Virus record (IMG/VR): IMGVR_UViG_3300042484_000873
Span: 1 to 64,000 of that record
Reading direction: 5' to 3' (one strand)
Origin: a virus
DNA length: 64,000 bases
A model generated the notes under the pieces. That model worked only from the letters and a program-made list of their open reading frames with translations. It did no database searches and was not told the DNA's origin. Positions 38,989-64,000 of this stretch are shown one piece after another. How positions within the stretch are numbered: position 1 is the first letter of the stretch; every line of letters begins with the position of its first letter. A program made the translations under genes and the position numbers.

Positions 38989-39036
38989 TCTTTGTATCCA
39001 TCTAAATACTCTTAGGAGATTACATGGATACAAAGA
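38989..39036 (+). promoter_or_regulatory. 13-bp perfect inverted repeat enclosing a late promoter (CTAAATA 39002-39008) and RBS, and pairing with the start codon of the 39024 gene
   Basis: TCTTTGTATCCAT (38989-39001) / ATGGATACAAAGA (39024-39036). Confidence 0.75.
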
Positions 39037-39332
39037 TTTTAATTACTGAAGCCAAAGCCCGCTTCAATCACAATTCCGCAAAAGCCTATTTAAAAGACAA
39101 ATATAGTAGCAAGTTAATTGTTGCTGACCAGGGCGGCCTTTGGTGCGCTGACCAAACCACTATTTCTTTTCTAAACACAATGGATGATGACAACTATGTC
39201 ATTATGATTGATACCTTCAATAATCCAGTTCAAGTTAACCGTACACAACTATTAGAAGTATTGAAAACTACATACAATACAGTTATGTTGGCATGGTATA
39301 AAGAATGGAAAGAGTTAGAAAGTAAGAGATGA
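39024..39332 (+). CDS. Hypothetical protein, first gene of the modification operon
   Basis: AGGAG RBS; ATGA overlap with the next gene; no recognised motif. Confidence 0.7.
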   Translation: MDTKILITEAKARFNHNSAKAYLKDKYSSKLIVADQGGLWCADQTTISFLNTMDDDNYVIMIDTFNNPVQVNRTQLLEVLKTTYNTVMLAWYKEWKELESKR

Positions 39333-40129
39333 ATAGGGGCGTAATATTATTTGCGTTTAACTCTCCCAAATTCAATTACTATGATATGGCTGTAGCTACA
39401 GCTAAACGCATCAATCATTTCTTAAACTTACCTGTAACACTTGTTACGGATGAAAATTCTATACCTACTCAGCCTGAGTATACATTTGATAAGACAGTCA
39501 TAGTTACTCCGGACAAAAACAACAAACGTGATTGGGGTATATGGATCAACAAAGGTAGATATCAGGCATTCGAGTTGAGTCCATACGATGACACTATTTT
39601 ATTAGATACCGATTACTTGGTCAATTCAAATAAGCTATTACATACATTTGATTTGCCTACTGATTTTTGTTGCCATGACAACACGCATTTTTTGATGTAT
39701 CCTGATATTCCGCAAGAACTATTAAGTAACTATGGCTTCAAAACACTATGGGCTACTGTAGTAAGATTCAACAAAACTAAACGTGCTGAACAAATATTCC
39801 ATTCAATGGAAATGATTCAAAATAATTTTGAACACTACGCAAATCTACATAGTTTCATTCATTCAACATTCCGTAATGATTATGCGTTAACACTAGCAAC
39901 ACGCATTGTTAATGGACATACTACGCCTGTCAGTGATTACATACCGTGGAATCTAGTCCATATAGGCAAGAATACTTCAATACATAAAAACACGGATGAT
40001 CCTTTTAATACTGAATATACTGTAATGTTTGATAACTGGAACAAAGGTAAAATTCGTAAAGAATACAACATAATTAAAGACATGGATTTCCATGTGTTGA
40101 ACAAAGAAAACTTTTTGGAGTTGATATAA
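39329..40129 (+). CDS. GT-A fold glycosyltransferase (GT8/mannosyltransferase-like)
   Basis: RGVILFA start, SPYDDTILLDTD (DxD), WATVVRF, RNDYAL, HVLNK. Confidence 0.7.
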   Translation: MNRGVILFAFNSPKFNYYDMAVATAKRINHFLNLPVTLVTDENSIPTQPEYTFDKTVIVTPDKNNKRDWGIWINKGRYQAFELSPYDDTILLDTDYLVNSNKLLHTFDLPTDFCCHDNTHFLMYPDIPQELLSNYGFKTLWATVVRFNKTKRAEQIFHSMEMIQNNFEHYANLHSFIHSTFRNDYALTLATRIVNGHTTPVSDYIPWNLVHIGKNTSIHKNTDDPFNTEYTVMFDNWNKGKIRKEYNIIKDMDFHVLNKENFLELI

Positions 40130-40893
40130 TGTCTAAGGGTTTTGTAATTATGGCACAAGACACATCAAGTGTGAAATACACAACTTGTGCGGAAGCGTTA
40201 AAGAAAAGCATATTGCGAGTCATGCCAAATGCTAACATAACTATTATCACAACTGATATGTTACCATACGGTGATTTAGCCCCAACTAACGAGTGGAAAT
40301 TAATAAACGACTGGCAAGTATATGAAGCAAGCCCGTATGATGAGACTATCAAGTTAGAAGCAGATATGTATATTCCACGCAATATTGACCATTGGTGGGA
40401 TGTATTATCGCAACAGGATGTAGTAGTGTCTAGTTCAATCAGAAATTTTAGACAAGAAATATCAGACAATAGATTCTACCGTAGATTTATTGACGATAAC
40501 AACTTACCTGACGCATACAATGCTATCACTTATTTTAAAAAATCTGATACAGCCAAGCAATTTTTTGATATTGTAAAAGATGTTTTTGAAAATTGGAATG
40601 ACTACAAAGCATCATTGAAGTGCAATTCGGAAGAAATTGTAACAACAGATTGGGCATATGCTATTGCTTGCCATATTATGGGTATTGAAAACACAATGAT
40701 GCCTATGTTTAAAGAAATGGCAATGGTTCATATGAAACAATACATTAATGGTTGTCCCACTGAGAACTGGACAGATACGTTTGTTTATGAATGTTTTTCG
40801 GATCATATTAGAGTTCAAACTGTACCACAGCAATACCCGTTCCACTATCATGTAAAAAACTTTAGTGATAAAATATTAGAAAGTATGAAATGA
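40129..40893 (+). CDS. Paralogous GT-A glycosyltransferase-like protein (DxD replaced by EAD)
   Basis: KGFVIMA, SPYDETIKLEAD, YNAITYF, TTDWAYA, HMK, FHYHVK; colinear with the previous gene. Confidence 0.65.
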   Translation: MSKGFVIMAQDTSSVKYTTCAEALKKSILRVMPNANITIITTDMLPYGDLAPTNEWKLINDWQVYEASPYDETIKLEADMYIPRNIDHWWDVLSQQDVVVSSSIRNFRQEISDNRFYRRFIDDNNLPDAYNAITYFKKSDTAKQFFDIVKDVFENWNDYKASLKCNSEEIVTTDWAYAIACHIMGIENTMMPMFKEMAMVHMKQYINGCPTENWTDTFVYECFSDHIRVQTVPQQYPFHYHVKNFSDKILESMK

Positions 40894-41249
40894 GTACGGA
40901 CGACAACCAACAAGATTATATTATCATCTGGGAACAAGCTAAACTAGAACCACCTGAATTTAGATTGTACTACGATGATAAAGGATCGGTAATATGCTAC
41001 ACAGGTGACAAGTCAATGACCGGAAATTATATTGTCATTGATGCGTTAACATTCGCTGCCGCTAGACCAGATTTAAGAGTTATTGATGGTAGGATATCTA
41101 CAGCAAGCCCCAAGTCAGTAGTTTATAAACTAATGCCTGATGCCGCAGAAGGGGTAGAATGTCATCCTGATGATGTAAGCGTGGTAGTCAATAGTACACA
41201 TGTAGGTGAAAGGCAGAAATGGAAATTAAACATATATGAACTCGACTGA
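40890..41249 (+). CDS. Hypothetical protein
   Basis: Overlaps both neighbours in the operon; no recognised motif. Confidence 0.65.
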   Translation: MSTDDNQQDYIIIWEQAKLEPPEFRLYYDDKGSVICYTGDKSMTGNYIVIDALTFAAARPDLRVIDGRISTASPKSVVYKLMPDAAEGVECHPDDVSVVVNSTHVGERQKWKLNIYELD

Positions 41250-42189
41250 TATTATTGATGTAGCTGATTTAGACTGCATTTATCTAAGTTATGACGAGCC
41301 ACAGAAGGAAGAATTTTGGCTCAAGATCAAGAACATGGTGCCATGGGCTAAACGTGTAGACGGAGTTAAAGGTTCAGACGCCGCACACAAAGCCGCAGGT
41401 GAAGCCAGCGATACAGAACGTTTCATTCTTATTGATGGCGACAACATGCCAGAAGAAAGTTTCTTTAATATTCAATTAGATTTCACGGGTAAAGACGAGT
41501 CATTTAAACGAGCACAGTTTCGTTGGAAAGCTATCAATAACATTAACGGGTTGAGATACGGTAATGGCGGCATGAGTTCTTGGACTAAAGAATATGTCGC
41601 CAACATGAAAACACACGAACATCAAAAAGATGGTGATGTATCACGTATTGCTGATTTCTGTATGGGCGGAGATGATAACTTGTATTGGGCTATGTGGGAT
41701 TGCTATTCAACCACATATCCAAATATGACACCATTTCAAGCATGGCGTGCAGGATTCCGCGAAGGTGTTAAGATGAGTTTAGATAGAGGTGCTCGACCCA
41801 CAGTAGATCAATTCAAAGAAACTGTGGCAAGTCGCAACTTAGATAACTTGACTATCTGGCATAACATAGGTGCAGATGTAGAGAATGGTGACTGGGCTAT
41901 ATATGGTGCCCGACTTGGTACATATATGACGTTATTGACTACATGGGATCATGCAAATGTTCAATGGTTTGATAACTACATTCAAATGTGGGAAGAACAA
42001 GAACTCAGAAACCCGGTTGTCGAGGCTGCACAAATTGGTCAACAACTCAACGACAAGTTAGGTTTGCCTATGTGCAGATTAGATGAAGCACAGAGTAAGT
42101 TCTTCAAGCGTCATTATCTTGCTGATAAATATAATCTCGGACCATTAGTAAAAGAGATGGACGTTATTAGAAAAATAGAAGGATGGTAA
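41236..42189 (+). CDS. Glycosyltransferase-like protein (GT-A, DGD motif)
   Basis: YLSYDEP, RVDGVKG...AHKAA, FILIDGDN, YGNGG, AWRAGFREGVK. Confidence 0.6.
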   Translation: MNSTDIIDVADLDCIYLSYDEPQKEEFWLKIKNMVPWAKRVDGVKGSDAAHKAAGEASDTERFILIDGDNMPEESFFNIQLDFTGKDESFKRAQFRWKAINNINGLRYGNGGMSSWTKEYVANMKTHEHQKDGDVSRIADFCMGGDDNLYWAMWDCYSTTYPNMTPFQAWRAGFREGVKMSLDRGARPTVDQFKETVASRNLDNLTIWHNIGADVENGDWAIYGARLGTYMTLLTTWDHANVQWFDNYIQMWEEQELRNPVVEAAQIGQQLNDKLGLPMCRLDEAQSKFFKRHYLADKYNLGPLVKEMDVIRKIEGW

Positions 42190-43133
42190 TGCAACACGAA
42201 TATATTAAATTAGCACACAGTAATCCCGCACATGAGGATTGGTTCGTAGTTAACTGGTGCTTAGGTAACACATGTAATTTCGAATGTAGTTACTGTCCAG
42301 ATGATCTTCATTCAGGTAGCATTAAGTGGCCTGAGATAGAACAAATTAAACAATTTATGACTAGAGTAGCTGAACAAGTTGCTCCTAGAAAAGTATATTA
42401 TGAATTAACTGGTGGTGAAGTTACACTATACAAGCATTTTACTGAAATTTGCCAACACGCCACCGCACTTGGCGCCAAAGTTGGATTGATTAGTAATGGT
42501 AGCAGAACACTGCGTTGGTGGGAAGATAATAAACAATATTTTGACCATGTGTGTTTAAGCTTTCATCCTGAGTTTGCTGACCCTGATCACTTTGTTCAAG
42601 TTGTAAAATTATTAAACAATGATGTAAGAACACATGTAAACATTATGATGAGTCCTGAGAAGTTTGACTTCTGTTATGCTATCGCAAACAAAGTTAAAAC
42701 ATTAGGTAATATCAGTATGGCACTTCAGCCATTGATTCATGACTTCGGTGATACATTGTTTGACTATGATGATTTTCAGAAAAAGATTTTTGATAAACAA
42801 CATGAGTTGATTGTTAAACACATCAAGCATACTAAATCATTTGATTACTATCGAGGTGCTATGAAGATGGTTAAAGAAGATGGAACTGAAATCGTATCTA
42901 GCGCACATAGATTCATTAGTCAAAAGACAAATGATTGGAGTGGTTGGAAATGCTACAGTGGAGCAGAACAAATTGTAGTTGACTTATCTGGAGATGTGTT
43001 TAGAGGATGGTGTAAAGTTGGCGGCAAGATTGGCAATATATTTGAAAATTTTGAAGTAACCAAAACACCTGTTATTTGTAATAAAACAATGTGCCACTGT
43101 AACTTTGATATTATGAGCACGAAAGAACTATGA
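42189..43133 (+). CDS. Radical SAM enzyme with a C-terminal twitch-like domain
   Basis: CNFECSYC, TGGE, SNG; C-terminal C..G...C...C.K..C.C. Start at 42189 (TAATG) or 42183. Confidence 0.9.
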   Translation: MQHEYIKLAHSNPAHEDWFVVNWCLGNTCNFECSYCPDDLHSGSIKWPEIEQIKQFMTRVAEQVAPRKVYYELTGGEVTLYKHFTEICQHATALGAKVGLISNGSRTLRWWEDNKQYFDHVCLSFHPEFADPDHFVQVVKLLNNDVRTHVNIMMSPEKFDFCYAIANKVKTLGNISMALQPLIHDFGDTLFDYDDFQKKIFDKQHELIVKHIKHTKSFDYYRGAMKMVKEDGTEIVSSAHRFISQKTNDWSGWKCYSGAEQIVVDLSGDVFRGWCKVGGKIGNIFENFEVTKTPVICNKTMCHCNFDIMSTKEL

Positions 43134-44491
43134 GTAATCCACTAGACACAATATGCGATTTAAAATGGAACTACCCTATCTTTGGTATGGATAGAGGTGA
43201 ATTCAGAAGTTGCTGTAGGACTCCTACTAATTTAGTAACAGAGAACGAGTTACAAGAATTTGGCGTTGATGCTTTCTTGAATTCACCTAAACAAAGACAA
43301 GAACGCTTGGACTTAATTCAGGGTCGTAGAACTGAATCATGTGTTAGTTGCTGGAAACTAGAAGATTCTGGCATACAGAGTCCTCGTCATCACCCTAAAC
43401 AAATGTGGTGGCAGTTAATAAAATCTAAACAAGTCACACCCAGTGAATACTCTGATGAAAAACTATCATTGGAATTAAGTAAGATTAATGATATCAATCA
43501 TCCGGCATTGTATAGTTATAAGCCATACATGTTAGAAATCAGCATGGGTAATACCTGTGATTTGAAATGCATGTACTGTAGTCATCACTATTCTACTCAG
43601 TGGGCAACGGAACGTATCAAGTACCATGAAATAACACAAGAACAGTATGATAGAGAATTTCCCAAAGCACCACCGAGCTTTGACGGTAAATTTTGGGAAT
43701 GGTTCAATGAGACCGGAAGACATAGTATCACACGACTTGGATTGATTGGTGGCGAACCATTAATCATGCCAGAGTTCTATACTTTCATGGATAAAGTCAT
43801 TGCCAGTGTTGAAGAAATCAACGACCAGCGTAAAGAAAAGATTACATTATGGATAGTAAGTAACTTTAACACACCGTCAAATTATCTACAAAAGGTAATG
43901 CAGTATCTACCCAAGATATCCAAAGTATTCAACTTAGAGATATTGGGCAGTATGGAAAGCGTTGGTGAAAAATCAGAGTACATTCGCAACGGCGTTAGCT
44001 GGGAACGATTCACTAAAAACATTGACACTATCTTAAGTAACAAAGAACTAGAGTTTGATTTTGGCTTCATCATGAGTGTTAACGCATTGAATATAACCAG
44101 TAACAAAGACTTTATTGCTTATACAAAAGCATTGTATGAAAAGCATGGTAGACCAGTGATATTGAAGCAAAACTTAGTTAGTTTTCCTAGCTGGCAAAGT
44201 CCAATGATACTGTCACAAGACTTCATCCCCTACATAGAAGATACTATTCAATATCTAAATGACAATGCTGAATCTATGCCAACGGTAAAAGACTCACTTG
44301 GAACATGGTCAGCATATGCTAAATTCCTACAAACTATTATTGATGGTATCAACAATCAATCAATTGATAGATTAAATGACAGAAAGAAATTCGCTGAGTG
44401 GTTCGATACGTATGATTCACGCAGGGGACTAAAGTTAACTGGCACATTCCCGGAATACACTGATTTCTATAACATGTGTAAGGGTTTATAA
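43130..44491 (+). CDS. Radical SAM enzyme with an N-terminal SPASM-like domain
   Basis: N-terminal C...CC...CVSC; CDLKCMYC; GGEP; YIRNG..W; C-terminal D.RR....TFPE. Confidence 0.9.
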   Translation: MSNPLDTICDLKWNYPIFGMDRGEFRSCCRTPTNLVTENELQEFGVDAFLNSPKQRQERLDLIQGRRTESCVSCWKLEDSGIQSPRHHPKQMWWQLIKSKQVTPSEYSDEKLSLELSKINDINHPALYSYKPYMLEISMGNTCDLKCMYCSHHYSTQWATERIKYHEITQEQYDREFPKAPPSFDGKFWEWFNETGRHSITRLGLIGGEPLIMPEFYTFMDKVIASVEEINDQRKEKITLWIVSNFNTPSNYLQKVMQYLPKISKVFNLEILGSMESVGEKSEYIRNGVSWERFTKNIDTILSNKELEFDFGFIMSVNALNITSNKDFIAYTKALYEKHGRPVILKQNLVSFPSWQSPMILSQDFIPYIEDTIQYLNDNAESMPTVKDSLGTWSAYAKFLQTIIDGINNQSIDRLNDRKKFAEWFDTYDSRRGLKLTGTFPEYTDFYNMCKGL

Positions 44492-45888
44492 TGGATAAGA
44501 AACAATTTATTCCTATCTTTTCCGGCGATGACGGCAAGGGTTCTAAAATTTGGTATACTTCTAAGTTATTAGACGAACAGTATGGATTTGATCTTGTTGA
44601 AATCATCAAGAAAACTTCTCCCACATCAACACATAGAGCAACAGATAGTGAATATACAGAACTTGTGCGAGATCAAGTTCCTGATAACTTTTGTTTATAT
44701 CCATTTACACATTTTCAATTAGATCCAGATGGTAGAGCACGTCCTTGTTGTAAGTATAAGGTAGGTGATCCTACATGGCAGAAAGATGTTCCTAAACTAC
44801 CTGATGTAAACATAGGTGATCTCTGGGAGCAAGAAGAATTTCAAAATATACGTAGTCAGTTTTTAAGAAACGAAAGACCATCTGGGTGTAAAGCATGTTG
44901 GGATGAAGAAGCAGCAGGAGTACCTAGTATGAGATTGACTAGAGAAAAGGGCGGCAAAGAGCACCCACATGCAACTTTCTTCCATCATATTCCTAGACTT
45001 TATCCAAAGAGCCTAGACTTAAAACTAAGCAACTTGTGCAATCTCAAGTGTAGAATATGTACTCCTTTTCTAAGCACACAATGGATGAAAGAAATCATCG
45101 ATTTGGGTGTACATGATATGGGAGATGTTAGAACATTCACTAGCAATGCTAAAGAAAAGTTTTCTGCTGATCCTGCAAACGAAGAAATATTAAAACAGTG
45201 GGCACCTACTATTGACTACTTAGAATTCTATGGTGGTGAACCATTAATGCAACAAGAACATGATAAAATTTTGCGTATCATGAATGAGCACGGTAAGCCA
45301 GAACACACTGGATTATACTATAACACTAATAGCACTATATGTGACGAAGAATTCTTTAAATTGTGGGCTCCTTTCAAGGAAGTAACTATAAATTTCAGCA
45401 TAGACGATGTTGGTACTAGATTCGAATATCAAAGAAAAAATGCTATTTGGGCTGAGACACTAGATAACATGAACAAATATAAAGAATTAGCATTAAAATA
45501 CAACGTCAATATGATAGTGAGACTCTATACTACAGTAGGGATTTTGAATGTATTGTATCTGCCGGAATTTTTTGAGTTTGTTAAACAACATGAAATGAAA
45601 GTGGTATTGAACCTAGTTCATTACCCTCATCATTATTCTATTGTCAATCTACCGGCTGAAGTTAAAGATATCGTAAAAGAAAAATTGCTATCACTTGACA
45701 CTGGAAAGTACTTAACTGAATGGTCTCCTACAATTGATAACATCATAAATTTCATGTATGGATCAGAGTGTAATACGGAGTTACTTAAAACGTTCTTTCA
45801 TAAAACACATATACATGATGAATATAGAAATGAGTCGTTTAACAATACTTTCCCTGAATTATATGAGATGTTAAAGAAGTATGAATAA
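44491..45888 (+). CDS. Radical SAM enzyme with an N-terminal SPASM-like domain
   Basis: CLYPF...PCC...CKACW; CNLKCRIC; GGEP; NTN. Confidence 0.9.
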   Translation: MDKKQFIPIFSGDDGKGSKIWYTSKLLDEQYGFDLVEIIKKTSPTSTHRATDSEYTELVRDQVPDNFCLYPFTHFQLDPDGRARPCCKYKVGDPTWQKDVPKLPDVNIGDLWEQEEFQNIRSQFLRNERPSGCKACWDEEAAGVPSMRLTREKGGKEHPHATFFHHIPRLYPKSLDLKLSNLCNLKCRICTPFLSTQWMKEIIDLGVHDMGDVRTFTSNAKEKFSADPANEEILKQWAPTIDYLEFYGGEPLMQQEHDKILRIMNEHGKPEHTGLYYNTNSTICDEEFFKLWAPFKEVTINFSIDDVGTRFEYQRKNAIWAETLDNMNKYKELALKYNVNMIVRLYTTVGILNVLYLPEFFEFVKQHEMKVVLNLVHYPHHYSIVNLPAEVKDIVKEKLLSLDTGKYLTEWSPTIDNIINFMYGSECNTELLKTFFHKTHIHDEYRNESFNNTFPELYEMLKKYE

Positions 45889-47062
45889 TAATTTACCCAA
45901 ATCATTTTGTTCATTGCCGTGGGTTAATATATCTACCGATGTGAATGGGTCATTGCGCCCTTGTTGTAAGTTTGCACAACCTGATATATCTAATGAGTAT
46001 CAACTACCTAATATGAAAGAAGGTAGATTAGATGTATTATGGAATGACCAGCGTTTTCAAAATCTTAGACAAGCATTTTTGGATGGTAAGAAACCAAAAG
46101 AATGTCAAAGTTGCTGGGATGAAGAAGCTGCCGGAATCAAGAGTTTTAGAGTTCAATGGGAAATTGACAAAAAGGTAGACACCACTGGTATGATTTTCGA
46201 ACCTGTTGCTACTAGCGGTCCACGTGCAATGGACTTAAAACTAAACAACGTATGTAATCTCAAATGTAGAATCTGTGGTCCACAAGCAAGTTCAACTTTC
46301 TTGAAAGAACATCAAGAACGATTGAATATAACATTGGAAGGAAGCGAATATTGGATTAGCAATAAGATTCTTGGTACAGCCAATGAAGAAGTTATTAACA
46401 AATGGGCAGAAGATTTAATTCACCTTGAAGTTACTGGGGGCGAGCCAATGGCAAGTCCGGAGAACATAAAAATTTTAGACTTACTAATTAAGTCAGGTAA
46501 AGCCAAGAACATATCAGTATTGTTGAACACCAATGGCACCTTGTACAATAAGAAATTTTTAGATAACATACTTCAGTTCAAAGAAATAACACTGTGTCTA
46601 TCAATTGATGATTTAGATGCTAGGCTAGAGTACGAACGCTATCCCACAGAATGGAACGTAATACAAGAAAATATAACAAAATTTATTGAATTACGAAAGA
46701 CACATAGTAATCTGTTTCTAACGTTATGTCCTACTGTTAGTTCTTTTAACGTGTACTATCTACCAGATTACTTAGAGTGGGCAAAGACACTGGATATATA
46801 CACCTATTATAACATATTACATTACCCTCCTAGTCATAGTGTGAAGAACTTACCGGATAAGTTAAAAGAAATAGTATCTGCCCGTTTAACACATGAAGAT
46901 TTTGCTATCGTCAAAAACTTCTTGCATTTATCCAGAGATAATGATACACTTATCAATGAATTTATTAATAAGAATGAAGAATTAGACCAATACAGACAGC
47001 AAGATTTTAAAACCACATTCGGTGAATGGGGGAACTTAGTTATGGAATACAACGATGAATAA
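45881..47062 (+). CDS. Radical SAM enzyme with an N-terminal SPASM-like domain
   Basis: CSLPW...PCC...CQSCW; CNLKCRIC; GGEP; NTNGT. Confidence 0.9.
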   Translation: MNNNLPKSFCSLPWVNISTDVNGSLRPCCKFAQPDISNEYQLPNMKEGRLDVLWNDQRFQNLRQAFLDGKKPKECQSCWDEEAAGIKSFRVQWEIDKKVDTTGMIFEPVATSGPRAMDLKLNNVCNLKCRICGPQASSTFLKEHQERLNITLEGSEYWISNKILGTANEEVINKWAEDLIHLEVTGGEPMASPENIKILDLLIKSGKAKNISVLLNTNGTLYNKKFLDNILQFKEITLCLSIDDLDARLEYERYPTEWNVIQENITKFIELRKTHSNLFLTLCPTVSSFNVYYLPDYLEWAKTLDIYTYYNILHYPPSHSVKNLPDKLKEIVSARLTHEDFAIVKNFLHLSRDNDTLINEFINKNEELDQYRQQDFKTTFGEWGNLVMEYNDE

Positions 47063-48203
47063 ATTAACACCAGAGCAAATTGACGCATATAATGTTAAAC
47101 GTAAAGAGTTTGACCAAAGCAGAGAAATAAACACAATAAGTCCGTGTGTTGCCCCGTTAAACAATATGTATTTTACTGTTGAAGGTAATGTAGCTCCTTG
47201 CTGGTTATTAGTTGGACGTGTTGATAAATGGTCAACTACTCGGTCAATCAAAGATATATGGTTTGGTGAGAATTTTACTCAATACAGAAATCAATTAAAA
47301 GAAGGTATATTCAATAGTGAATGTAGAGTATGTAAGCAGAAAATAGAAGCAGACACTTGGCCATTGGCATTAGCTTATGATGGTTTTAGTGTGAAAGAAT
47401 ATCCAACTGTATTAGAATTAGAGTTAAGTAATCAGTGTAATTTAGAATGTGTAATGTGTGATGGTAGATTAAGTTCTGGTATTAGAAAAAACAGAGATAA
47501 ACTACCACCTATGACAATGGTGTATGATGATAGTTTTGTTGAACAATTGAAAGAATTCATACCTCATTTAGAAGAACTTAGATTCAACGGTGGTGAGCCC
47601 TTCGCACAAAAAATTGTTTATGATATTTGTATGGTTGTAGCACAAATTAATCCATCATTGAGAATCAACATTGCCACTAACGGTACTGTATATAACAAGC
47701 AGGTTCGTGAAATATTAGACAAGTGTAATATTCACTTGAACATTAGTATTGATAGCTTAGATAAACAAAACTATGAATCAATTAGAATCAACGGAAACTT
47801 TGATGATCTGATGGAAAACTTCCTAACATTTAAAAAGTACTGTAAAGATAACAATCGCGGACTTAGCGTTATGGTTAATCCCATGAACAACAACTGGTGG
47901 GAAATGCCTGAATTTGTTCGCTTCACAACTGAGAATGAGGTTAACTTATGGTACAACACGATACACCACCCAGAACATCTAAGTATTTGGAAATTACCTA
48001 GTCAAAATTTAGGAGTTATTCTACAAACATTAGAACCACAAGTTGAAGAACTAAAACCAGTTGACTACTCAAATTATGTAGCACACGGTAACTGGGAAAA
48101 ACTAAATCATTTTGTCAATAAGCAGATAGCAAATTGGTACAACAAGCAGGCGGCAAGAGAACAAGAAACAAATAAAAAAGTATTTGAAATTAAAGCAATA
48201 TGA
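47055..48203 (+). CDS. Radical SAM enzyme with an N-terminal SPASM-like domain
   Basis: CVAPL...PCW...CRVC; CNLECVMC; GGEP; TNGT. Confidence 0.9.
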   Translation: MNKLTPEQIDAYNVKRKEFDQSREINTISPCVAPLNNMYFTVEGNVAPCWLLVGRVDKWSTTRSIKDIWFGENFTQYRNQLKEGIFNSECRVCKQKIEADTWPLALAYDGFSVKEYPTVLELELSNQCNLECVMCDGRLSSGIRKNRDKLPPMTMVYDDSFVEQLKEFIPHLEELRFNGGEPFAQKIVYDICMVVAQINPSLRINIATNGTVYNKQVREILDKCNIHLNISIDSLDKQNYESIRINGNFDDLMENFLTFKKYCKDNNRGLSVMVNPMNNNWWEMPEFVRFTTENEVNLWYNTIHHPEHLSIWKLPSQNLGVILQTLEPQVEELKPVDYSNYVAHGNWEKLNHFVNKQIANWYNKQAAREQETNKKVFEIKAI

Positions 48204-51615: not shown

Positions 51616-51624
51616 AAAATCTCT

Positions 51625-53199: not shown

Positions 53200-53213
53200 T
53201 TTATATCCTTAAA

Positions 53214-54359: not shown

Positions 54360-54361
54360 AT

Positions 54362-55585
54362 TTACTTCTTTTTCAATTCATTTTTTAATTGTGGAACAAT
54401 ACTCACTATACTGTTACCGCGCCCAGTTTCAAGTAGTTCGGTATATTCAACCCAGTGAGTGTGAAGTTCTTCCCCTAGGAAATCATTGGATAATAGATTA
54501 ATCACGTATTGAAATTCATTGTCAATGCTATTCTTGGTATAAAATTCAATTAAATGTTTTCTAGTGTCATCCGATAGTGTCGCTAATGACAAATAACTTG
54601 GACTGACTACACAATTGTTGAATCCTGCTAATCGTTTAACCTTGTTATATTTTTCTGACATTTCTATAGTCCAATCACGGATCTCTAGTAAGTTGAAAGC
54701 ATTGTAATTCATTGAAGCAACACTTATCAATATAGTTACATTGGGTATTTCATTTAATTTTGCTAAGTTGGGTTCAATAGTTTCAAACTTTGCATCACCG
54801 TATCTGATATAATTGAATAGTTCACCTATCCCGTCTATGGACATATTAATGTGAACTGTTTTACATTTTTTTAATAATTCTATTACAGCATCATCAACGT
54901 ATGTTCCGTTAGTAGTTACGCTTACATTTACTTTGTTTAATAAACCTTGCGTATCAGCATATTCTAAAATTGTTTGTGTTTCTGAATTAAGGAAAGGCTC
55001 ACCTCCCCTAAAACTTAAAGTTCTTAGGTTACTTAAATCTAATTGTTTTACATTCTCTAAAACTAAATCTGGGTTAGGTAAATGCATCTTGTCTAACGTA
55101 GTACCATCAGAATCTGAATATGACCCAACTTCTATTGGACGAGAGGAAAAAACCCGCTTCTGTTTAGTTGGCTCGTATGTGTCAATTATTTTGATTAGTT
55201 TCTTACGTTCAATATGCCATTTACTACTATACAATGAATGGCAGTGAACACATGCTAAGTTGCAAATATTACTACCATTAAATTCTAAATAAGTTAACTT
55301 TTCATTGTCAATATCGTCTGCTGTAGAATTTTCAAAATAGTTTTGTCTAAGACTATTACCCATTGTTTCTTCATTTTTTTTACAAAGTAGACAACCAGTG
55401 GGCCACTCATTAGCATACATCTGCTTTTTTAATTGTTGCCACTTTTCATTAGTGATGATTTCAGATATAGTATTGTCATTGACATTACCTAAGAATCCGT
55501 CTTGATAATAACAGCAAGGCCTAATTCCCTTATTAGTATCAACTAATATTGATGTTAATGGTGCGGTGCAGGTTACAGTTGTCAT
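54362..55585 (-). CDS. Radical SAM enzyme with an N-terminal SPASM-like domain (tandem paralog of the next gene)
   Basis: CTAPL...PCC...CLLC; CNLACVHC; GGEP. Confidence 0.9.
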   Translation of the reverse strand: MTTVTCTAPLTSILVDTNKGIRPCCYYQDGFLGNVNDNTISEIITNEKWQQLKKQMYANEWPTGCLLCKKNEETMGNSLRQNYFENSTADDIDNEKLTYLEFNGSNICNLACVHCHSLYSSKWHIERKKLIKIIDTYEPTKQKRVFSSRPIEVGSYSDSDGTTLDKMHLPNPDLVLENVKQLDLSNLRTLSFRGGEPFLNSETQTILEYADTQGLLNKVNVSVTTNGTYVDDAVIELLKKCKTVHINMSIDGIGELFNYIRYGDAKFETIEPNLAKLNEIPNVTILISVASMNYNAFNLLEIRDWTIEMSEKYNKVKRLAGFNNCVVSPSYLSLATLSDDTRKHLIEFYTKNSIDNEFQYVINLLSNDFLGEELHTHWVEYTELLETGRGNSIVSIVPQLKNELKKK

Positions 55586-57491: not shown

Positions 57492-57499
57492 AATATTAT

Positions 57500-58162
57500 T
57501 TAATTTAAAGGTTTTTGTAAAATAATTAAAGTTTCGGTTAACGACATTTTTGTCCAGCCTTGCTGTATAAGATTGTTAAATTCATTTACAACATCAGGAA
57601 ACAACTCTAAATTATAATCGTGTCCTACTATATATCCGCCTGGCTTAATATGTCCACCCCAAAAATTAATATTTGTAAGTAGAAAAGGATTGGTATGTAG
57701 TGCATCTTCAAAAAACACATCAATGGATTGATTCCAATTTAAAAAATCAACAGGTGATGTTCCTGAATGTACACTAATATTAGAATATTTACTAGTCACG
57801 TATCTTAATGCCGCCTCGCTAGAAGGGTCACTTATAAAACAATTATTAATATCTGTTGCTAAATCTAATCGATCCTCATTTGGTATATCATGTATATTAT
57901 ACCAGTTATTTGTCATTTGACTTATGTAGGATCTTTGTAATTCCCATTGAATAATATTATCAGGGTGATGCATATCTATACAATGTACCGCAATAGTGGG
58001 ATTCACTGACGCCATCAAACAAGCTGACCCTCCAATATGTGACCCCACTTCAACTATAATACTATTATTATCTAATGTAGATATTAAATTATATAATACA
58101 GTTCTTTCATCGGAAGACATTAACGCTAGGTTACTTTCAATTGGCATCAATGATTCAATCAT
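57500..58162 (-). CDS. Class I SAM-dependent methyltransferase (Methyltransf_24-like)
   Basis: IVEVGSHIGGS, CID, IDVFFEDALH, KPGGYIVGHDY. Confidence 0.85.
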   Translation of the reverse strand: MIESLMPIESNLALMSSDERTVLYNLISTLDNNSIIVEVGSHIGGSACLMASVNPTIAVHCIDMHHPDNIIQWELQRSYISQMTNNWYNIHDIPNEDRLDLATDINNCFISDPSSEAALRYVTSKYSNISVHSGTSPVDFLNWNQSIDVFFEDALHTNPFLLTNINFWGGHIKPGGYIVGHDYNLELFPDVVNEFNNLIQQGWTKMSLTETLIILQKPLN

Positions 58163-59205: not shown

Positions 59206-59210
59206 CACAA

Positions 59211-59293
59211 ATCCTTTATATGATATTTATCAGGATCTATTTTCAGGCATAAATTAATAATTTTTACAAAGGATAGGATTACTAAATATAAGC
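59211..59293. promoter_or_regulatory. Divergent late promoters: ATAAATA (minus, 59230-59224) and CTAAATA (plus, 59282-59288), with inverted repeat 59211-59220/59265-59274
   Basis: Motifs face both divergent operons; the repeat covers the AAAGGA RBS of the minus-strand gene. Confidence 0.6.
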
Positions 59294-60637
59294 ATGATAA
59301 ACAACGAAGATACCGTATGCCACTTGCGTTGGGGATATCCCAACTTTAGTCTCTCCCGCAATGAAATTCGCACCTGCTGCAAGACACCATTTCAAACCAT
59401 CAATGATGGTATGATGGACAAGTACGGTACAGATATTTTTCTGAACACTGATTATCAGAAAAAAAGAAGAATGGAAATGCTTCAGGGAGTTAAACATAGT
59501 GACTGCAAAAGTTGCTGGAGTTTAGAAGAAGCCGGAGCAAAAAGTTTGCGTGGTAACAACCCATACGGGTTTATAGATTATGCCAACAGACATCAGATGT
59601 TTCAGGAATTTACGCTTCCTACGCTAGTAGAGATAGCTAATCAAGTTACAATAGACAGTAAAATACTAGAAAGCAATAATCCATTCATGCTTGAGGTAAG
59701 TCTAGGTAATACATGTGATATGAAGTGTATGTACTGTAATCATGTATATAGTAGCCAGTGGGCATCAGAAAGTTTAAAGAACAATACCATCAACATAGAA
59801 ATCTATAAACAAGTACAAACAAATCCCAATGAAAGATTCATTAATTTGTTTTGGAATTGGGTAGATACAAAAGCAAAACATTCATTAGACAGAATTGGTA
59901 TCATCGGCGGTGAACCATTGATTACTCCTGAGTTCTATGATTTCTTAGATAAGCTAATAGAAGTCTATGCTGATAAAGAAGGTTCTAAAACTAGAATCTG
60001 GGTAGTTACTAATTTAAATGCCACAGACAATTACTATAACAAGTTTTTAGAATACATTCCTAAACTATCAGATAAATTCATATTAGAAGTTCACATCAGT
60101 ATGGAAGCATTGAGTGACCAAGCTGAATATATTCGCAATGGACTTGAGTGGAGTCGATTTGAAAGTAATGTAAATAAAATATTTGCTAGTGATGCTGACA
60201 TTGAATTAGCATTTTTACCAAGTGTCACTGCGTTGGCTATACCAAGATTTCCTAAGTTTCTCAAATGGGTCTATGATTTATCTAAGACACATGACAAGGC
60301 AGTCATGCTTAAACAAAACATAGTGACACATCCCGATGTTCAATCACCGTTTATATTGCCTCCAGAATTTGCTGACTACTTAGATCCTGCGATTGATTGG
60401 ATGCAAAGTATATCAGTAGATATGCCAGATGTTAGTGACAAATTTGGCACATGGCCCGGCTATACTGATTTTTTAATTAAACTACGTGATGGTATTAGAT
60501 TCAACAAGAATGACAACACTATGCTTAAACAAAGATTTGCTACATGGTTTGATGACTTTGATAAAAAAAGAAATTTGAATTTTGTTAACACGTTCCCTGA
60601 ACTAGCAAAATTCTACGATGAATGTAAAACACAATAA
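59294..60637 (+). CDS. Radical SAM enzyme with an N-terminal SPASM-like domain (paralog of 43130-44491)
   Basis: CHLRWGYP...TCCKTP...CKSCW; CDMKCMYC; IGGEP; D.KR...TFPEL. Confidence 0.9.
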   Translation: MINNEDTVCHLRWGYPNFSLSRNEIRTCCKTPFQTINDGMMDKYGTDIFLNTDYQKKRRMEMLQGVKHSDCKSCWSLEEAGAKSLRGNNPYGFIDYANRHQMFQEFTLPTLVEIANQVTIDSKILESNNPFMLEVSLGNTCDMKCMYCNHVYSSQWASESLKNNTINIEIYKQVQTNPNERFINLFWNWVDTKAKHSLDRIGIIGGEPLITPEFYDFLDKLIEVYADKEGSKTRIWVVTNLNATDNYYNKFLEYIPKLSDKFILEVHISMEALSDQAEYIRNGLEWSRFESNVNKIFASDADIELAFLPSVTALAIPRFPKFLKWVYDLSKTHDKAVMLKQNIVTHPDVQSPFILPPEFADYLDPAIDWMQSISVDMPDVSDKFGTWPGYTDFLIKLRDGIRFNKNDNTMLKQRFATWFDDFDKKRNLNFVNTFPELAKFYDECKTQ

Positions 60638-60646
60638 GGAGTTAGT

Positions 60647-60748
60647 ATGAAATGGATTAAAAATTTAATAGATAAAATTCGAATGGAAATTTACTATCGA
60701 AAACGTCTTAAAGAACTTAAAAAACGAGACCCATTCATCTACAAATAA
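60647..60748 (+). CDS. 33-aa basic peptide ending RDPFIYK (absent from the ORF track)
   Basis: AAGGAG RBS; MKWIKNLIDKIRMEIYYRKRLKELKKRDPFIYK; fills the gap up to the carbamoyltransferase ATG. Confidence 0.8.
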   Translation: MKWIKNLIDKIRMEIYYRKRLKELKKRDPFIYK

Positions 60749-60750
60749 GC

Positions 60751-62250
60751 ATGAACTATATTGGAATATCATGCGGCTTCCATGATGCCGCAGTAAGTGT
60801 TATAGATGACAACGGTAACATTTTGTTTGCGGGTCACAGTGAACGATACAGTAAAAACAAACATGATTCACACCTATGTCTCCCTTTAATCACTGATGCC
60901 AAATCATACATGGATAGTGATGAATATCAAGTTCACTACTATGAAAGACCTTGGGTTAAGTATTTAAGACAACTGCGTTCCGGAGAACCACGCTCATTGC
61001 GTAACTTATCAGCTAAGAATGTGATAGGGTCATCTATAGTTAAGCATCAGCTAGATAACAAAACTATACACACTCACAATCATCATTTAAGTCATGCTGC
61101 CGCAGGCTTTCAGACAAGTCCCTACGATGATGCTACTGTAGTTGTTATTGACGCTATTGGCGAGTTTGATACTATAAGCATTTACAACGCATGGTATGAT
61201 AAGAATGGCAAAGCACAGTATAAGAAGTTATGGGGGCAACATTATCCGCATAGTATAGGATTATTCTATAGTGCTATGACACAACGTGTAGGACTACGCC
61301 CATTAGACGAAGAATATATTCTCATGGGTATGGCAGCTTATGGTAAACCAAACTTAAAAAAAGAATTAAAAGAAATGTCTGACACATTAGTAAAATCATA
61401 CAAAGACATTACTTTCAAACATAACTTGCACATGGGTGTAACTGATACTTTCTTAGAAGGTGCAGATGACATGGATATCGCATGTAGCGCACAACTAATT
61501 GCTGAACAGTTAATTACTAATGTTATCAGTAAAGCAAAAATGTTGGGTGGTAGTAAGAATCTTGTATATAGTGGCGGCGTAGCATTAAATTGTTTAGCAA
61601 ATAGATTATTAGGAAATTTTTATGAAAACATTTGGATTATGCCTAATCCTGGCGATGCTGGTTCTAGTCTTGGAGCGGCCTGTCTTGGCTATAGTAAACG
61701 TGTTAATTGGACTAACGCTTTTCTCGGCTATGACATTAGTGGGCCTTATCCTACTAATCGTATACTTGATAGCCTACTCACTGATAAAATTGTGGGAGTC
61801 GCTAACGGACGAGCAGAGTTTGGCCCAAGGGCCTTGGGAAATAGAAGCTTACTTGCAGACCCTAGAGGAACAGAAATCAAGGACGCAGTAAATGAAATCA
61901 AACGAAGACAAAAATTTAGACCTTTTGCGCCAGTCATTTTGGAGGAATATGCTGATACTTATTTTGATATGCCTCGTGGTTTCAATAATAGTAGGTATAT
62001 GCAGTCAATCGCCCGTTGTAGGGTTCCTGACTTATTTCCTGCTATCGTTCACCACGACGGCACTAGTCGTGTCCAGACTGTCCCAAAAGATGGAAGTGGA
62101 ATACGAGAACTCCTTGAAAAATGGTACGTCTTGACTGGTTGTCCAATGTTATTGAACACATCATTGAACATCAGGGGCGAGCCAATGGTAAATGACCAAA
62201 AAGATGCGGATCGTTTTGAATTAATGTATAATGTTAAAGTTATATCATAA
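60751..62250 (+). CDS. O-carbamoyltransferase, NodU/CmcH/TobZ family
   Basis: HDAA, ERYS..KHD, HHLSHAA, DAIGE, GGVALNC, PGDAG, GRAEFGPRALGNRS, RPFAP, SRVQTV, LLNTSLN..GEP. Confidence 0.95.
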   Translation: MNYIGISCGFHDAAVSVIDDNGNILFAGHSERYSKNKHDSHLCLPLITDAKSYMDSDEYQVHYYERPWVKYLRQLRSGEPRSLRNLSAKNVIGSSIVKHQLDNKTIHTHNHHLSHAAAGFQTSPYDDATVVVIDAIGEFDTISIYNAWYDKNGKAQYKKLWGQHYPHSIGLFYSAMTQRVGLRPLDEEYILMGMAAYGKPNLKKELKEMSDTLVKSYKDITFKHNLHMGVTDTFLEGADDMDIACSAQLIAEQLITNVISKAKMLGGSKNLVYSGGVALNCLANRLLGNFYENIWIMPNPGDAGSSLGAACLGYSKRVNWTNAFLGYDISGPYPTNRILDSLLTDKIVGVANGRAEFGPRALGNRSLLADPRGTEIKDAVNEIKRRQKFRPFAPVILEEYADTYFDMPRGFNNSRYMQSIARCRVPDLFPAIVHHDGTSRVQTVPKDGSGIRELLEKWYVLTGCPMLLNTSLNIRGEPMVNDQKDADRFELMYNVKVIS

Positions 62251-62253
62251 GTA
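62247..62253 (+). promoter_or_regulatory. Late promoter variant ATAAGTA
   Basis: 7 nt upstream of the ATG at 62261; no SD sequence in between. Confidence 0.5.
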
Positions 62254-62260
62254 AGTATCT

Positions 62261-64000
62261 ATGTTAAGAGATGTATTTTATTACGGTAAAAAACCGAATG
62301 CCCACCCAAGAGAACAACACGCAATTGATTTAGCTGATGCTAGACAACAATCTACCACAGAACATTTTTGGATAATTAACGAACTATGTGATTATCGAAA
62401 TTTTGACTGGGACTTTGATTTTGATTTCTTGCCTGACGAAGATGTGTGGGCACAAGAGCATAACAATGTATGGCCTAGTCAGCATCAAAAAGATAGCGGC
62501 ACCTGGTTATGTAACACGGATAATACACACGCATTAACAATCTACCGCAATGATGTAGAACCGGTGATTCGCCGTAGAGAAAAATCAGACGCTTGGATAT
62601 TAGTTGACTTGATTGATGAAACTAAGTTTGATTTATCATGGCATCCAGACCCAACGGATCCCCCATTCATTTACAAATGGGGTAGTAAGTTTATACCAGC
62701 ACAAGTTCAAGCCTGCTTAGAATATCATACTCCTAAGGCTACTCAAGTTAAGTACATGGATCAGAATATTGAACTATTACCTAACATTGAATGCTGGAAA
62801 GAATATTATTCAATTGATAAAACTACATTTGACATGAGTTGGAGACCAGATCCAACAAGCCCTCCCTACATATATGTATGGGGTAACAAGTATATTCCCG
62901 GTGAATTAGAAGCAACTATTGAGTATCATTGTCCCGGTGCAACAGAACGCAAGTATGTGGATACTCTTGTTGACGTATTACCGCAGCAAGAACGATGGAA
63001 TATAGTACAACAACCAAAATACTTTGATTACAGTTGGAGACCTGATCCACGTGAACCGGCATACATCTATGTATGGGGTAATAAACACATTGCCGGAGAA
63101 CTAAAGTCCACGATTGAATATCACTGCCCCGGTGCAACAGAACGCAAATACATGGGTGACATTGAAGTAGAACCTGAAATGGATCGATGGAAAGTAATAC
63201 AGGACATTGACAAAACTAAGTTTGACATGAGTTGGAGACCGGATCCGCGTGAACCGGCATACATCTATGTATGGGGTAACAAATATGACCCTGCTGAAGT
63301 TAAGCCTACTTTAGAATATACAGTACCGGGTGCTACTGATAAAAAGTACATGGGTATTGTAGATTTAGAACCAGAGTGGGATAGATGGAAAGAACATATA
63401 CTTGTAGATAGAAACTCATTTGATTTTAGTTGGAGACCAGACCCCAACTTACATGAACTACCTTATATCTATGTATGGGGTAATAAATTTCACCCAGCTG
63501 AAGAAAAACCCACTGTTGAATATCACGTGCCGGGTGCTACTGAGTACAAGTACATGGGTATTGTTGATTTAGAACCTGAATGGGATAGATGGAATATAGT
63601 TATTCCTATTGATATGAATAGTTTTGATTTTAGATGGAGACCTGATCCTAATCTATATGAACCACCGATGATATATGTTTTTGGTAACAAGTGGAATGAT
63701 AGTGCGACTGAACCAACAATAGAGTATATTGTTCCCGGCGCCACTGTTAAAAAATATATGGACTATCCTCTTGCTATACCTAAGATTGATATGTCACTAT
63801 GGACAGTAAGCAACAACGATGACTTAGAAACATTTGACTTTAGTTGGAGACCTAATCCACATAGTCCACCTCAAATATATCAGTGGGCTGATAATGGTCC
63901 TCGCTATACTGTACCTGATGCGACAGAAGTAGTATTGATGGAACGTATTGAAAATACACAGAAATCAGAAGTTAATCGTTATAAAATTAAAACAACATTA
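62261..64000 (+). CDS. Repeat-containing protein, at least 580 aa, truncated at the window end (absent from the ORF track); possibly glycosyltransferase-derived
   Basis: Open from ATG 62261 (MLRDVFYYGKKPNAHPRE...) to the end of the window; seven FD.SW(R/H)P(D/N)P repeats. Confidence 0.85.
   Translation, partial: MLRDVFYYGKKPNAHPREQHAIDLADARQQSTTEHFWIINELCDYRNFDWDFDFDFLPDEDVWAQEHNNVWPSQHQKDSGTWLCNTDNTHALTIYRNDVEPVIRRREKSDAWILVDLIDETKFDLSWHPDPTDPPFIYKWGSKFIPAQVQACLEYHTPKATQVKYMDQNIELLPNIECWKEYYSIDKTTFDMSWRPDPTSPPYIYVWGNKYIPGELEATIEYHCPGATERKYVDTLVDVLPQQERWNIVQQPKYFDYSWRPDPREPAYIYVWGNKHIAGELKSTIEYHCPGATERKYMGDIEVEPEMDRWKVIQDIDKTKFDMSWRPDPREPAYIYVWGNKYDPAEVKPTLEYTVPGATDKKYMGIVDLEPEWDRWKEHILVDRNSFDFSWRPDPNLHELPYIYVWGNKFHPAEEKPTVEYHVPGATEYKYMGIVDLEPEWDRWNIVIPIDMNSFDFRWRPDPNLYEPPMIYVFGNKWNDSATEPTIEYIVPGATVKKYMDYPLAIPKIDMSLWTVSNNDDLETFDFSWRPNPHSPPQIYQWADNGPRYTVPDATEVVLMERIENTQKSEVNRYKIKTTL
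62590..63930 (+). repeat. Seven in-frame repeats of 65-70 aa (195-210 nt)
   Basis: Trp codons of W(R/H)P(D/N)P at 62639, 62840, 63035, 63233, 63431, 63635, 63845; consensus FD.SWRPDP.EP.YIYVWGNK...E...T.EY..PGATE.KYM. Confidence 0.9.

Follow-up and report, generated by a model that had tools for sequence, protein, structure and literature searches.

A radical SAM-rich gene cluster next to the tail-fibre genes of a freshwater jumbo phage as a candidate sugar-editing pathway

The window analyzed here covers the opening 64 kb of a virus contig of 89,584 bases from IMG/VR (record IMGVR_UViG_3300042484_000873; CheckV completeness, 17%). In its cluster region (39024–64000), directly 3′ of the tail-fibre genes, about 23 kb encode radical S-adenosylmethionine (SAM) enzymes together with glycosyltransferase (GT)-like, methyltransferase, and carbamoyltransferase proteins. 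Judged from the sequence, the chances are about even that the cluster is a phage-encoded pathway assembling and chemically editing an unusual sugar structure. A carbohydrate appears to be the best-supported substrate class: radical SAM-GT fusions, bacterial neighbourhoods, a donor-sugar locus, and the set of carbamoyl- and methyltransferases point to carbohydrate chemistry. The position of the cluster, its late-type promoter motifs, and a synteny reaching the Ralstonia phage RsoM2USA tie it to the fibre module. The most likely glycan acceptor would be the phage's own Thr-rich fibre proteins, and the host envelope is the main alternative target and a serious rival.

The cluster was annotated with Pfam, NCBIfam, and a CxxxCxxC regular expression. 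Genes are named below by their lower coordinate, and L008, L010, and L011 are loci in relatives. The features are as follows (ORF, open reading frame; aa, amino acids; nt, nucleotides).

36802..38016 (+), tail fibre protein with a C-terminal intramolecular-chaperone (Peptidase_G2) domain; PF11962, 28.5 bits; ortholog 5′ of the cluster in L010 and L011
38026..38976 (+), Thr-rich fibre-like protein, the last gene before the cluster; no Pfam or PHROG match
39002..39008 (+), late-type promoter motif CTAAATA, 22 nt 5′ of the 39024 start; kept at 3/3 orthologs
39024..39332 (+), 102-aa protein with no family match; orthologs in L010 and L011 at 65–79% identity
39329..40129 (+), GT-A (GT8/nucleotide-diphospho-sugar transferase)-like protein; Atlas leads; 30% identity to RsoM2USA ORF353
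40129..40893 (+), GT-A-like paralog of 39329; phrog_1903 (unknown function); 32% identity to RsoM2USA ORF352
40890..41249 (+), 119-aa protein with no matches; orthologs in L010 and L011
41236..42189 (+), GT2-like domain protein (motif level); 39% identity to RsoM2USA ORF350
42183..43133 (+), radical SAM protein with a C-terminal Cys-rich twitch-like domain; PF04055, 40.4 bits
43130..44491 (+), N-twitch radical SAM; NF033640, 247 bits (cut-off 170)
44491..45888 (+), N-twitch radical SAM; NF033640, 335.6 bits; SPASM at residues 68–137, then the core at 179–343
45881..47062 (+), N-twitch radical SAM; NF033640, 307 bits
47055..48203 (+), N-twitch radical SAM slightly below the family cut-off; NF033640, 152–155 bits against 170
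48200..49033 (+), DUF6071 protein; PF19547, 32.8 bits; SGNH-like by an N-terminal G-C-S-F..G-D-E motif alone
49030..51615 (−), B12-binding radical SAM with a Methyltransf_24-like C-terminal domain; PF02310, 49.6 bits, and PF04055, 56.3 bits
51625..53199 (−), 2-oxoglutarate (2OG)-oxygenase-like N-terminal half with a class I methyltransferase, accessory cassette; PF13489, 59 bits, residues 322–426
53214..54359 (−), divergent N-twitch radical SAM, accessory cassette; SPASM, 42 bits, residues 46–110; PF04055, 22.7 bits, and NF033640, 56 bits, both below the cut-off
54362..55585 (−), N-twitch radical SAM, accessory cassette; NF033640, 235.5 bits
55586..56860 (−), N-twitch radical SAM, accessory cassette; NF033640, 231 bits
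56820..57491 (−), 2OG-Fe(II)-oxygenase-like protein (motif level), accessory cassette; no Pfam match
57500..58162 (−), Methyltransf_24 methyltransferase, accessory cassette; PF13578, 42.7 bits
58162..59208 (−), radical SAM protein with an N-terminal twitch-like domain; PF04055, 57.8 bits
59224..59230 (−), late-type motif ATAAATA heading the minus-strand operon
59282..59288 (+), late-type motif CTAAATA 5′ of 59294
59294..60637 (+), N-twitch radical SAM of the 43130 subtype; NF033640, 249.7 bits
60647..60748 (+), conserved 33-aa ORF ending in ..KKRDPFIYK; AAGGAG 7 nt 5′ of the ORF
60751..62250 (+), NodU/CmcH-family carbamoyltransferase; PF02543, 136.5 bits, and PF16861, 162.4 bits
62247..62253 (+), late-type motif ATAAGTA 5′ of 62261; identical in L008
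62261..64000 (+), N-terminal part of a 1234-aa repeat protein with repeats ..FDxSWRPDP..PYIYVWGN..; its end lies at contig position 65965

An earlier note, made from the sequence alone, had counted eleven CxxxCxxC enzymes, and all 11 ORFs proposed there contain exactly one such motif. Its carbamoyltransferase, 33-aa peptide, and repeat protein are likewise real (Pfam domains, a ribosome-binding site with conservation, and a length of 1234 aa, respectively). The three methyltransferase domains that it listed are PF13489 in 51625, PF13578 in 57500, and the C-terminus of 49030, the last through its similarity to 57500 (31% identity over 215 aa, E 2e-34). The three GT-like genes (39329, 40129, and 41236) are present, and the GT call comes from motifs read by eye and language-model leads, not from a hidden Markov model (HMM). 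For the SGNH-like 48200 the N-terminal motif was seen by eye, but HMM searches gave DUF6071 alone; the two oxygenase-like domains (56820 and the N-terminal half of 51625) carry the HxD..H motif but have no HMM match in Pfam and no match in PDB. The analogies drawn to BtrN, GenK, and NodU hold as resemblances, but no equivalog cut-off was reached.

The 11 radical SAM ORFs lie between 42183 and 60637, and eight of them have an N-terminal twitch domain. In a six-frame search, 9/11 scored above the PF04055 cut-off (29.5 bits); the two below it, 43130 (22 bits) and 53214 (23–24 bits), still align with the N-twitch family, 43130 by its score on NF033640, and 59294 scored 28.8 bits in one scan and 30.7 bits in the six-frame search. 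Over their full length, six proteins (43130, 44491, 45881, 54362, 55586, and 59294; 231–336 bits) passed the NCBIfam model NF033640 (N_Twi_rSAM), which 47055 and 53214 missed. This model describes a subfamily and is named generically, as twitch domain-containing radical SAM protein. In all eight paralogs the Cys-rich SPASM/twitch domain precedes the CxxxCxxC core, and their alignment has 16 invariant columns, with the N-terminal Cys columns among the invariant ones. The family is large, with 8438 clusters (50% identity) matching at E 1e-30 or better. Literature searches found no paper on an N-terminal twitch or N-terminal SPASM enzyme and no tested member of the family.

The twitch-domain profile (13–81) matched residues 166–237 of BtrN in PDB (4m7s/4m7t, E 2.7e-10). 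What BtrN (2-deoxy-scyllo-inosamine dehydrogenase) and the N-twitch enzymes have in common is the twitch auxiliary-cluster domain, C-terminal in BtrN but N-terminal in the window enzymes, whose cores match other enzymes better. In PDB, the core matched an unnamed radical SAM protein, SkfB, another peptide maturase, and viperin-type enzymes. BtrN acts on a carbohydrate-type substrate (aminocyclitol dehydrogenase).

Outside the N-twitch set, the paralogs 42183 and 58162 are natural circular permutants of each other: 42183 has its Cys-rich domain at the C-terminus and 58162 at the N-terminus. The BLASTP E values were 4e-17 for the core and 9e-15 for the Cys domain. Each of the two genes stands at or near the head of a run of radical SAM genes. 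Of the NCBIfam models, PhpK came closest for 49030 (score 119, cut-off 600), and its score for a C-methyltransferase of RiPPs (ribosomally synthesized peptides with post-translational modifications) was 100 against 282.

Evidence on the substrate class came from homologs outside the window. All of the bacterial N-twitch loci examined (5/5) lie in GT-rich surroundings. A plasmid of Azospirillum brasilense carries an N-twitch radical SAM gene next to a carbamoyltransferase (30% identity to 60751), and the locus also contains FkbM and class I methyltransferases, a nucleotide-sugar dehydrogenase, three epimerase/dehydratases, and a glycosyltransferase. The eight-paralog alignment was too diverse for a genome scan; a scan of genome contigs with a single N-twitch protein gave one locus, in a Pirellulales metagenome-assembled genome (MAG). 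Among 151 sampled genomes of Planctomycetota, four had N-twitch matches at E 1e-30 or better. On a planctomycete chromosome, a 47055-like enzyme is fused to GT4/GT1 domains (47055 has 37.5% identity to the radical SAM half), and the operon of this fusion also encodes GT2s, GT4s, a polysaccharide deacetylase, and a Wzt O-antigen exporter ATPase. A GT1 or GT2 match lay within 8 kb in 4/4 planctomycete N-twitch loci, with an estimated chance of at most 17–27% per locus. Among the 148 best-scoring family representatives (P0123–P0270), 50 were at least 520 aa long, mostly with two or three tandem N-twitch modules; these tandem fusions may suggest consecutive steps on one substrate. None of the 50 matched a small GT reference set by BLAST.

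A second set of sugar genes lies 12 kb past the cluster on the same contig. There, thyA is followed by a short-chain dehydrogenase/reductase (SDR; PF01370, dTDP-glucose 4,6-dehydratase-like, 115 bits), a radical SAM gene, a DegT aminotransferase (PF01041, PseC-like), and a second radical SAM gene. The virion glycan tailoring proposed in the earlier note stands as far as the carbohydrate class is concerned, with support from the bacterial context, the fusions, and this second locus; the virion as the target did not follow with it.

The remaining cluster genes were read from motifs and leads, of which those for 39329 speak for a sugar role. Atlas feature searches with 39329 gave a nucleotide-diphospho-sugar transferase (0.97) and GT8/PF03407 (0.95) as leads, and 39329 and 40129 cross-match each other through relatives. 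The nearest named Atlas cluster of 41236 was GT2 (0.87); the GT2 pattern 'NxG..A.N.g..A.g.yi.flD.D' was read in it by eye, and PF00535 was recorded on 1/120 of its listed homologs. DxD-like DTD and DGD were also seen by eye in the GT-like proteins. The N-terminal half of 51625 has 45% identity to 56820 with the H..D and H invariant, and H88, D90, and H194 were invariant in an alignment of three 2OG-like sequences. The DUF6071 profile found no relative in PDB and a literature search found nothing on the family; it also occurs beside an N-twitch cluster in a second phage group (see below).

The carbamoyltransferase 60751 contains both the N and the C domain, is 44.5% identical to RsoM2USA ORF199, and missed the NodU equivalog (137 against 1000). 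In lake metagenomes, the summed contig depth of its region (60601–62400) was 4–13 times that of the rest of the cluster (X3, X5, and X10), and many short variant contigs covered the same region; the gene seems to be common to many other phages or organisms in the same lake samples.

The cluster belongs to an uncultured freshwater jumbo myophage, as follows from the gene content, the relatives of the wedge protein, the large contigs with orthologs, and the lake-water runs. In the region 5′ of the cluster, genes for a RusA-like resolvase, for gp46/47-like nuclease subunits, and for a gp55-like late sigma factor are followed by those for virion proteins, for a gp5-like hub, and for the baseplate wedge, and by a 6285-aa ORF. 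The large wedge protein is 32–34% identical to the wedge proteins of other jumbo phages, among them 121Q/Rak2-like and Sinorhizobium phages, and orthologs of the cluster genes were found on metagenome contigs of up to 349–525 kb. The stretch is contained in 24 listed lake-water runs from 22 studies, two of these runs being possible sources of the DNA, and phages of this group occur commonly in lake metagenomes. No match to the stretch came from near-identity searches of the phage collection. Contigs of four lake runs show the same arrangement as the window, and one contig of 10,737 bases (X3) is identical through the border between the core and the accessory cassette; some joints with low support (side 30 or less, or a single contig) were left aside.

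Nine related contigs were found and seven loci were compared (L003 and L006/L009 were left out). That the cluster is joined to the tail-fibre genes, as had been claimed, was confirmed: the module lies directly 3′ of the fibres, and the order of wedge, giant fibre, fibres, and cluster is kept in 2/2 of the related contigs that hold both. The core in the relatives comprises 42183, four N-twitch genes, the DUF6071 gene, the B12-radical SAM gene, and 58162, and usually extends to 59294, the peptide ORF, and the carbamoyltransferase. The genes from 51625 to 58162 form an accessory cassette, the radical SAM genes of which occur in 2/7 loci (L007 and L015). Other relatives have different inserts, for instance additional ORFs (L010, L012, and L013) and one more N-twitch gene (L012). 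In L013, a 41236-type domain and a 42183-type radical SAM enzyme are joined in one protein of 938 aa. Separately, a 70%-identical ortholog of 45881 (P0090) was found on a 13.6-kb contig in a MAG labelled Candidatus Fonsibacter, which is either mis-binned phage DNA or else a hint at the host.

A smaller version of the system is present in RsoM2USA, a cultured Ralstonia phage of 343.8 kb (MG752970). At the block ORF348–ORF355, the order is giant structural protein (2541 aa), fibre, 39329-like, 40129-like, 41236-like, N-twitch radical SAM, and 41236-like, and the hub and the wedge adjoin it. This 2541-aa protein, the ortholog of the 6285-aa ORF, was detected in virions according to the available text of PMC8504454. 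In the window, the 6285-aa ORF is a single frame (17122–35979) between the baseplate wedge and fibre genes. About 90 kb away from the block, a second module (ORF199–ORF202) holds the carbamoyltransferase, an ORF ending in ..DPFIYK, and an N-twitch radical SAM gene of the same subtype as 59294. RsoM2USA thus has two N-twitch enzymes in two loci, whereas the window has eight in one cluster. All of these RsoM2USA genes are annotated as hypothetical, and the available text of PMC8504454 contains no mention of radical SAM or carbamoyl.

In the second phage group, nine of 17 loci (L016–L032) were examined. They have three to five N-twitch genes and a B12-radical SAM gene at 34–38% identity to 49030, and a 42183-like gene is present in 4/9. 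In L017, the one locus scanned with Pfam, two DUF6071 genes, a DUF6267 gene, a weak cytidylyltransferase-like match, and a 2OG oxygenase were found. No tie of this group to cultured pelagiphages or cyanophages was found. The window phage is not closely related to pelagimyophages, and its radical SAM enzymes had no match in a cultured pelagiphage or cyanophage. Cultured KVP40-like Vibrio phages (K566, OZ196521, positions 161548–168284, L035) have four N-twitch-like radical SAM genes in a row; these are 21–28% identical to the window enzymes, and some are annotated as radical SAM domain protein or hypothetical.

The window group resembles the host recognition cluster (HRC) of pelagimyophages and cyanomyophages, which the available text of PMC7029224 (Zaragoza-Solas et al. 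2020) describes as a variable island within the structural genes, with tail fibres, GTs (GT8 being the commonest), and swappable radical SAM cassettes. Fibre linkage and a cassette content that varies between close relatives are features of both, as far as that text describes them. However, the HRC phages are T4-like with genomes of 140–200 kb, while this one is a jumbo phage with a wedge protein about 34% identical to those of 121Q/Rak2-like phages; the HRC is defined between VrlC and gp14, and the window is likened to it by content and not by those borders (PMC7029224, available text). The same text gives no radical SAM family analysis or enzyme count and proposes host O-chain modification, and the 11 radical SAM enzymes with carbamoyl- and methyltransferases of the window are unlike its HRC description.

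Late-type promoters at the entries to the cluster have good support at the sequence level, and the late timing is inferred from the motif. A late unit was sought as the combination of a gp55-type sigma factor, a TATAAATA-like element 5′ of late genes, and late timing. The gp55-like sigma factor matched phrog_12791 (E 7.4e-75). The four transcription units said to begin at (A/C)TAA(A/G)TA do have the motif at their heads: CTAAATA at 39002, ATAAATA at 59224–59230 on the minus strand, CTAAATA at 59282, and ATAAGTA at 62247. The motif is depleted: the window contains 39 copies, dinucleotide shuffles gave an expectation of 90.7 ± 8.0, and each of the 100 shuffles had at least 39. It lies at most 60 nt 5′ of 17/33 listed gene starts, or 17/30 when three rows that are artefacts of the gap rule are subtracted, with a chance expectation of about 0.02 per start. 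The starts with the motif include those of virion, baseplate, giant-fibre, fibre, gp9/10-like, and terminase genes as well as the cluster entries; gp55, the MoxR/VWA genes, and thyA have sigma-70-like −10 elements instead (by eye). In relatives, the motif is kept at 3/4 orthologs of 59294 and at 4/8 orthologs of 58162, the latter being those that head an operon.

At contig 74830–80021 (L001:12831–18022), thyA is preceded by a terminator-like hairpin and an extended −10 element, TGATACAAT, and appears to be co-transcribed with the SDR, radical SAM, DegT, and radical SAM genes. Since this locus has no late motif, its sugar-donor genes may be early while the main cluster is late.

Mechanistically, the donor locus would supply a 4-keto-6-deoxy or 4-amino sugar nucleotide, and the GT-A-like proteins 39329, 40129, and 41236 would move sugars onto an acceptor. 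Each N-twitch paralog would take a hydrogen from a sugar carbon, allowing oxidation, epimerisation, dehydration, or C–C/C-methyl chemistry. The B12-radical SAM/methyltransferase fusion and the two other methyltransferases would methylate, the carbamoyltransferase would cap a hydroxyl or an amine, and DUF6071 and the 2OG-like proteins might trim the product further. Transcription of the cluster would start at T4-type late promoters, along with that of the baseplate and fibre genes. As for the acceptor, 38026 is composed of 19% Thr and 36% Ser, Thr, and Asn together, and these three residues make up 31% of 36802 against an average of 22%; we infer that the Thr-rich 38026 is a candidate for carrying the glycan. 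The bolder proposal that radical chemistry edits the fibre-bound sugars at one position per N-twitch paralog, with cassettes swapped among close relatives, is offered as a long shot. If it were true, the receptor-binding surface would diversify chemically and not by protein sequence, and a very large radical SAM family would gain its first function, namely sugar editing at the polymer level, in bacterial O-antigens too.

Several results weigh against a sugar pathway expressed late and directed at the fibres. None of 39329, 40129, and 41236 had a GT match in Pfam, NCBIfam, or PDB searches. When the 41236 family was compared with three GT2 domains in hhalign, the expected motif was aligned but the probability was 0.14%; P0332 compared with the same three domains gave no support. 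SPASM/twitch radical SAM enzymes act mostly on peptides, the N-twitch enzymes had many weak matches to RiPP maturases in the NCBIfam scan, and a conserved 33-aa ORF, a possible peptide substrate, lies inside the cluster. DegT or carbamoyltransferase genes were near 0/4 planctomycete N-twitch loci (three genomes). Four relatives have 4 kb or more of sequence upstream; fibre linkage was found in two of them, and the upstream ORFs of L013 and L015 had no BLAST match to the window fibre proteins; in the nine loci of the second group, no large structural gene lay within 10 kb. The sugar-donor locus has no late motif on the plus strand from 69223 to 80014, and no RNA run is among the 24 listed lake-water runs.

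The alternative that survives best, although unlikely, is the same sugar chemistry carried out on the host cell envelope (O-chain or capsule), as a block to superinfection or an aid to release. Host O-chain modification is the published reading for the GT8/radical SAM fibre islands of pelagimyophages (PMC7029224, available text), and the bacterial homologs sit in O-antigen or polysaccharide loci with a Wzt exporter. However, Pfam scans of the 89.6-kb contig gave no flippase, Wzx/Wzy, polyprenyl-phosphate transferase, or exporter, no cluster protein was flagged as membrane-bound, a late start in the lytic phase would leave little time for surface turnover, and the gene order with the fibres is kept as far as RsoM2USA.

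A peptide-directed role is improbable; what still speaks for it are the conserved 33-aa ORF and the substrates on which SPASM/twitch enzymes usually act. The radical SAM enzymes would then cross-link, epimerise, or methylate the 33-aa peptide, the fibre proteins, or the repeat proteins in a RiPP-like manner. Twitch enzymes are typically peptide maturases; weak matches to PapB, WgkB, SkfB, and others were obtained, two peptide maturases (SkfB and one other) rank high among the PDB matches of the core, and tandem N-twitch fusions make up much of the top matches. The ORF ending in ..DPFIY(K) is kept across phages that are about 44% identical in the adjacent enzyme. Its identity is 97% in L010, 66% in L011, and 72% over 25 aa in L005, and the small ORF in the carbamoyltransferase module of RsoM2USA ends in ..RKQDPFIYK. 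On the other hand, one peptide stands against 11 enzymes and travels with the 59294-type enzyme and the carbamoyltransferase only, and in RsoM2USA the module with the peptide is about 90 kb from that with the fibre, GT, and radical SAM genes. The Pfam and NCBIfam scans of the cluster gave no leader-binding domain of the RRE type, protease, or exporter family, and the fusions involve glycosyltransferase or GT-like domains, not peptide-handling ones.

The 33-aa ORF ends in ..RDPFIYK, a conserved C-terminus similar to the repeat motif of the adjacent 1234-aa protein, the first repeat of which reads ..PDPTDPPFIYKWG... This repeat motif is a segment of the 41236-type GT-like domain just past the DxD position, and the 1234-aa protein ends in a copy of the 41236-type domain that has no DxD.

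DNA modification and a diffusible metabolite are less likely. Hypermodification of the phage DNA, with sugars or other groups placed on the bases to evade restriction, is given a very small probability. Phage glycosyltransferases often act on DNA (PMC12619734, available text), radical SAM and pyridoxal phosphate enzymes are found in thymidine hypermodification pathways in the part of the literature available, and the sugar-donor locus lies directly 3′ of thyA without a late motif. The earlier note saw no thymidylate-synthase-like gene in the window; one lies 10.9 kb beyond it. This sole ThyA-like protein, however, passes the equivalog for true thymidylate synthase (NF002497, 346.6 against 327 bits), and there is one copy per fragment in 4/5 related fragments. 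A Tet/JBP search of five fragments, run without a positive control, gave no match, a weak absence with 17–32% of each genome covered. A hypermodification pathway would call for a dUMP/dCMP hydroxymethylase or Tet/JBP enzyme plus base-directed transferases, and in the portion covered no such pathway was recognised. The main cluster moreover has late-type motifs and sits in the structural module, and the bacterial homologs are in polysaccharide loci. A diffusible small molecule (aminoglycoside-, nucleoside-, or phosphonate-like) made during infection is the least probable of all: the BtrN-like twitch radical SAM enzymes, the B12-radical SAM enzyme nearest to PhpK, and the carbamoyl-, amino-, and methyltransferases resemble antibiotic tailoring sets, but Pfam scans of the contig gave no cyclitol synthase, phosphoenolpyruvate mutase, nonribosomal peptide or polyketide synthase, resistance gene, or exporter, and the synteny with fibre and GT-like genes is conserved.

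For the preferred carbohydrate pathway, part of the picture is already known: fibre-linked variable islands with GTs and radical SAM cassettes occur in T4-like marine phages (PMC7029224, available text), and the N-twitch family has an NCBIfam model. New are the scale of 11 radical SAM enzymes, the jumbo-phage setting, the radical SAM-GT fusions that hint at the substrate class, the ..DPFIYK ORF, and the minimal version in RsoM2USA. With eight N-twitch paralogs in one phage cluster, the fusions and neighbours give biochemists a concrete substrate class, and the question is open to bench tests with the cultured RsoM2USA. Literature searches found no paper joining radical SAM, glycosyltransferase, and jumbo phage, and none joining radical SAM with carbamoyltransferase in an O-antigen or cyanophage context.

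In mycobacteriophages, GT genes lie beside structural genes and glycans are carried on virion proteins (Freeman et al. 2023, as summarised in PMC12619734, available text). That system belongs to another type of phage and host. To our knowledge, no radical SAM, carbamoyl, or methyl tailoring has been reported in mycobacteriophage virion glycosylation. If the product of the window cluster is placed on the virion, phage virion glycosylation would extend to Gram-negative jumbo phages and to radical tailoring, with a possible bearing on host range and defence evasion.

Beyond the window, the contig region 68289–72459 (L001:6290–10460) contains genes for a porin of Gram-negative type (PF13609, 78 bits) and for a MoxR-type AAA ATPase with a DUF2201 metallopeptidase/VWA partner.

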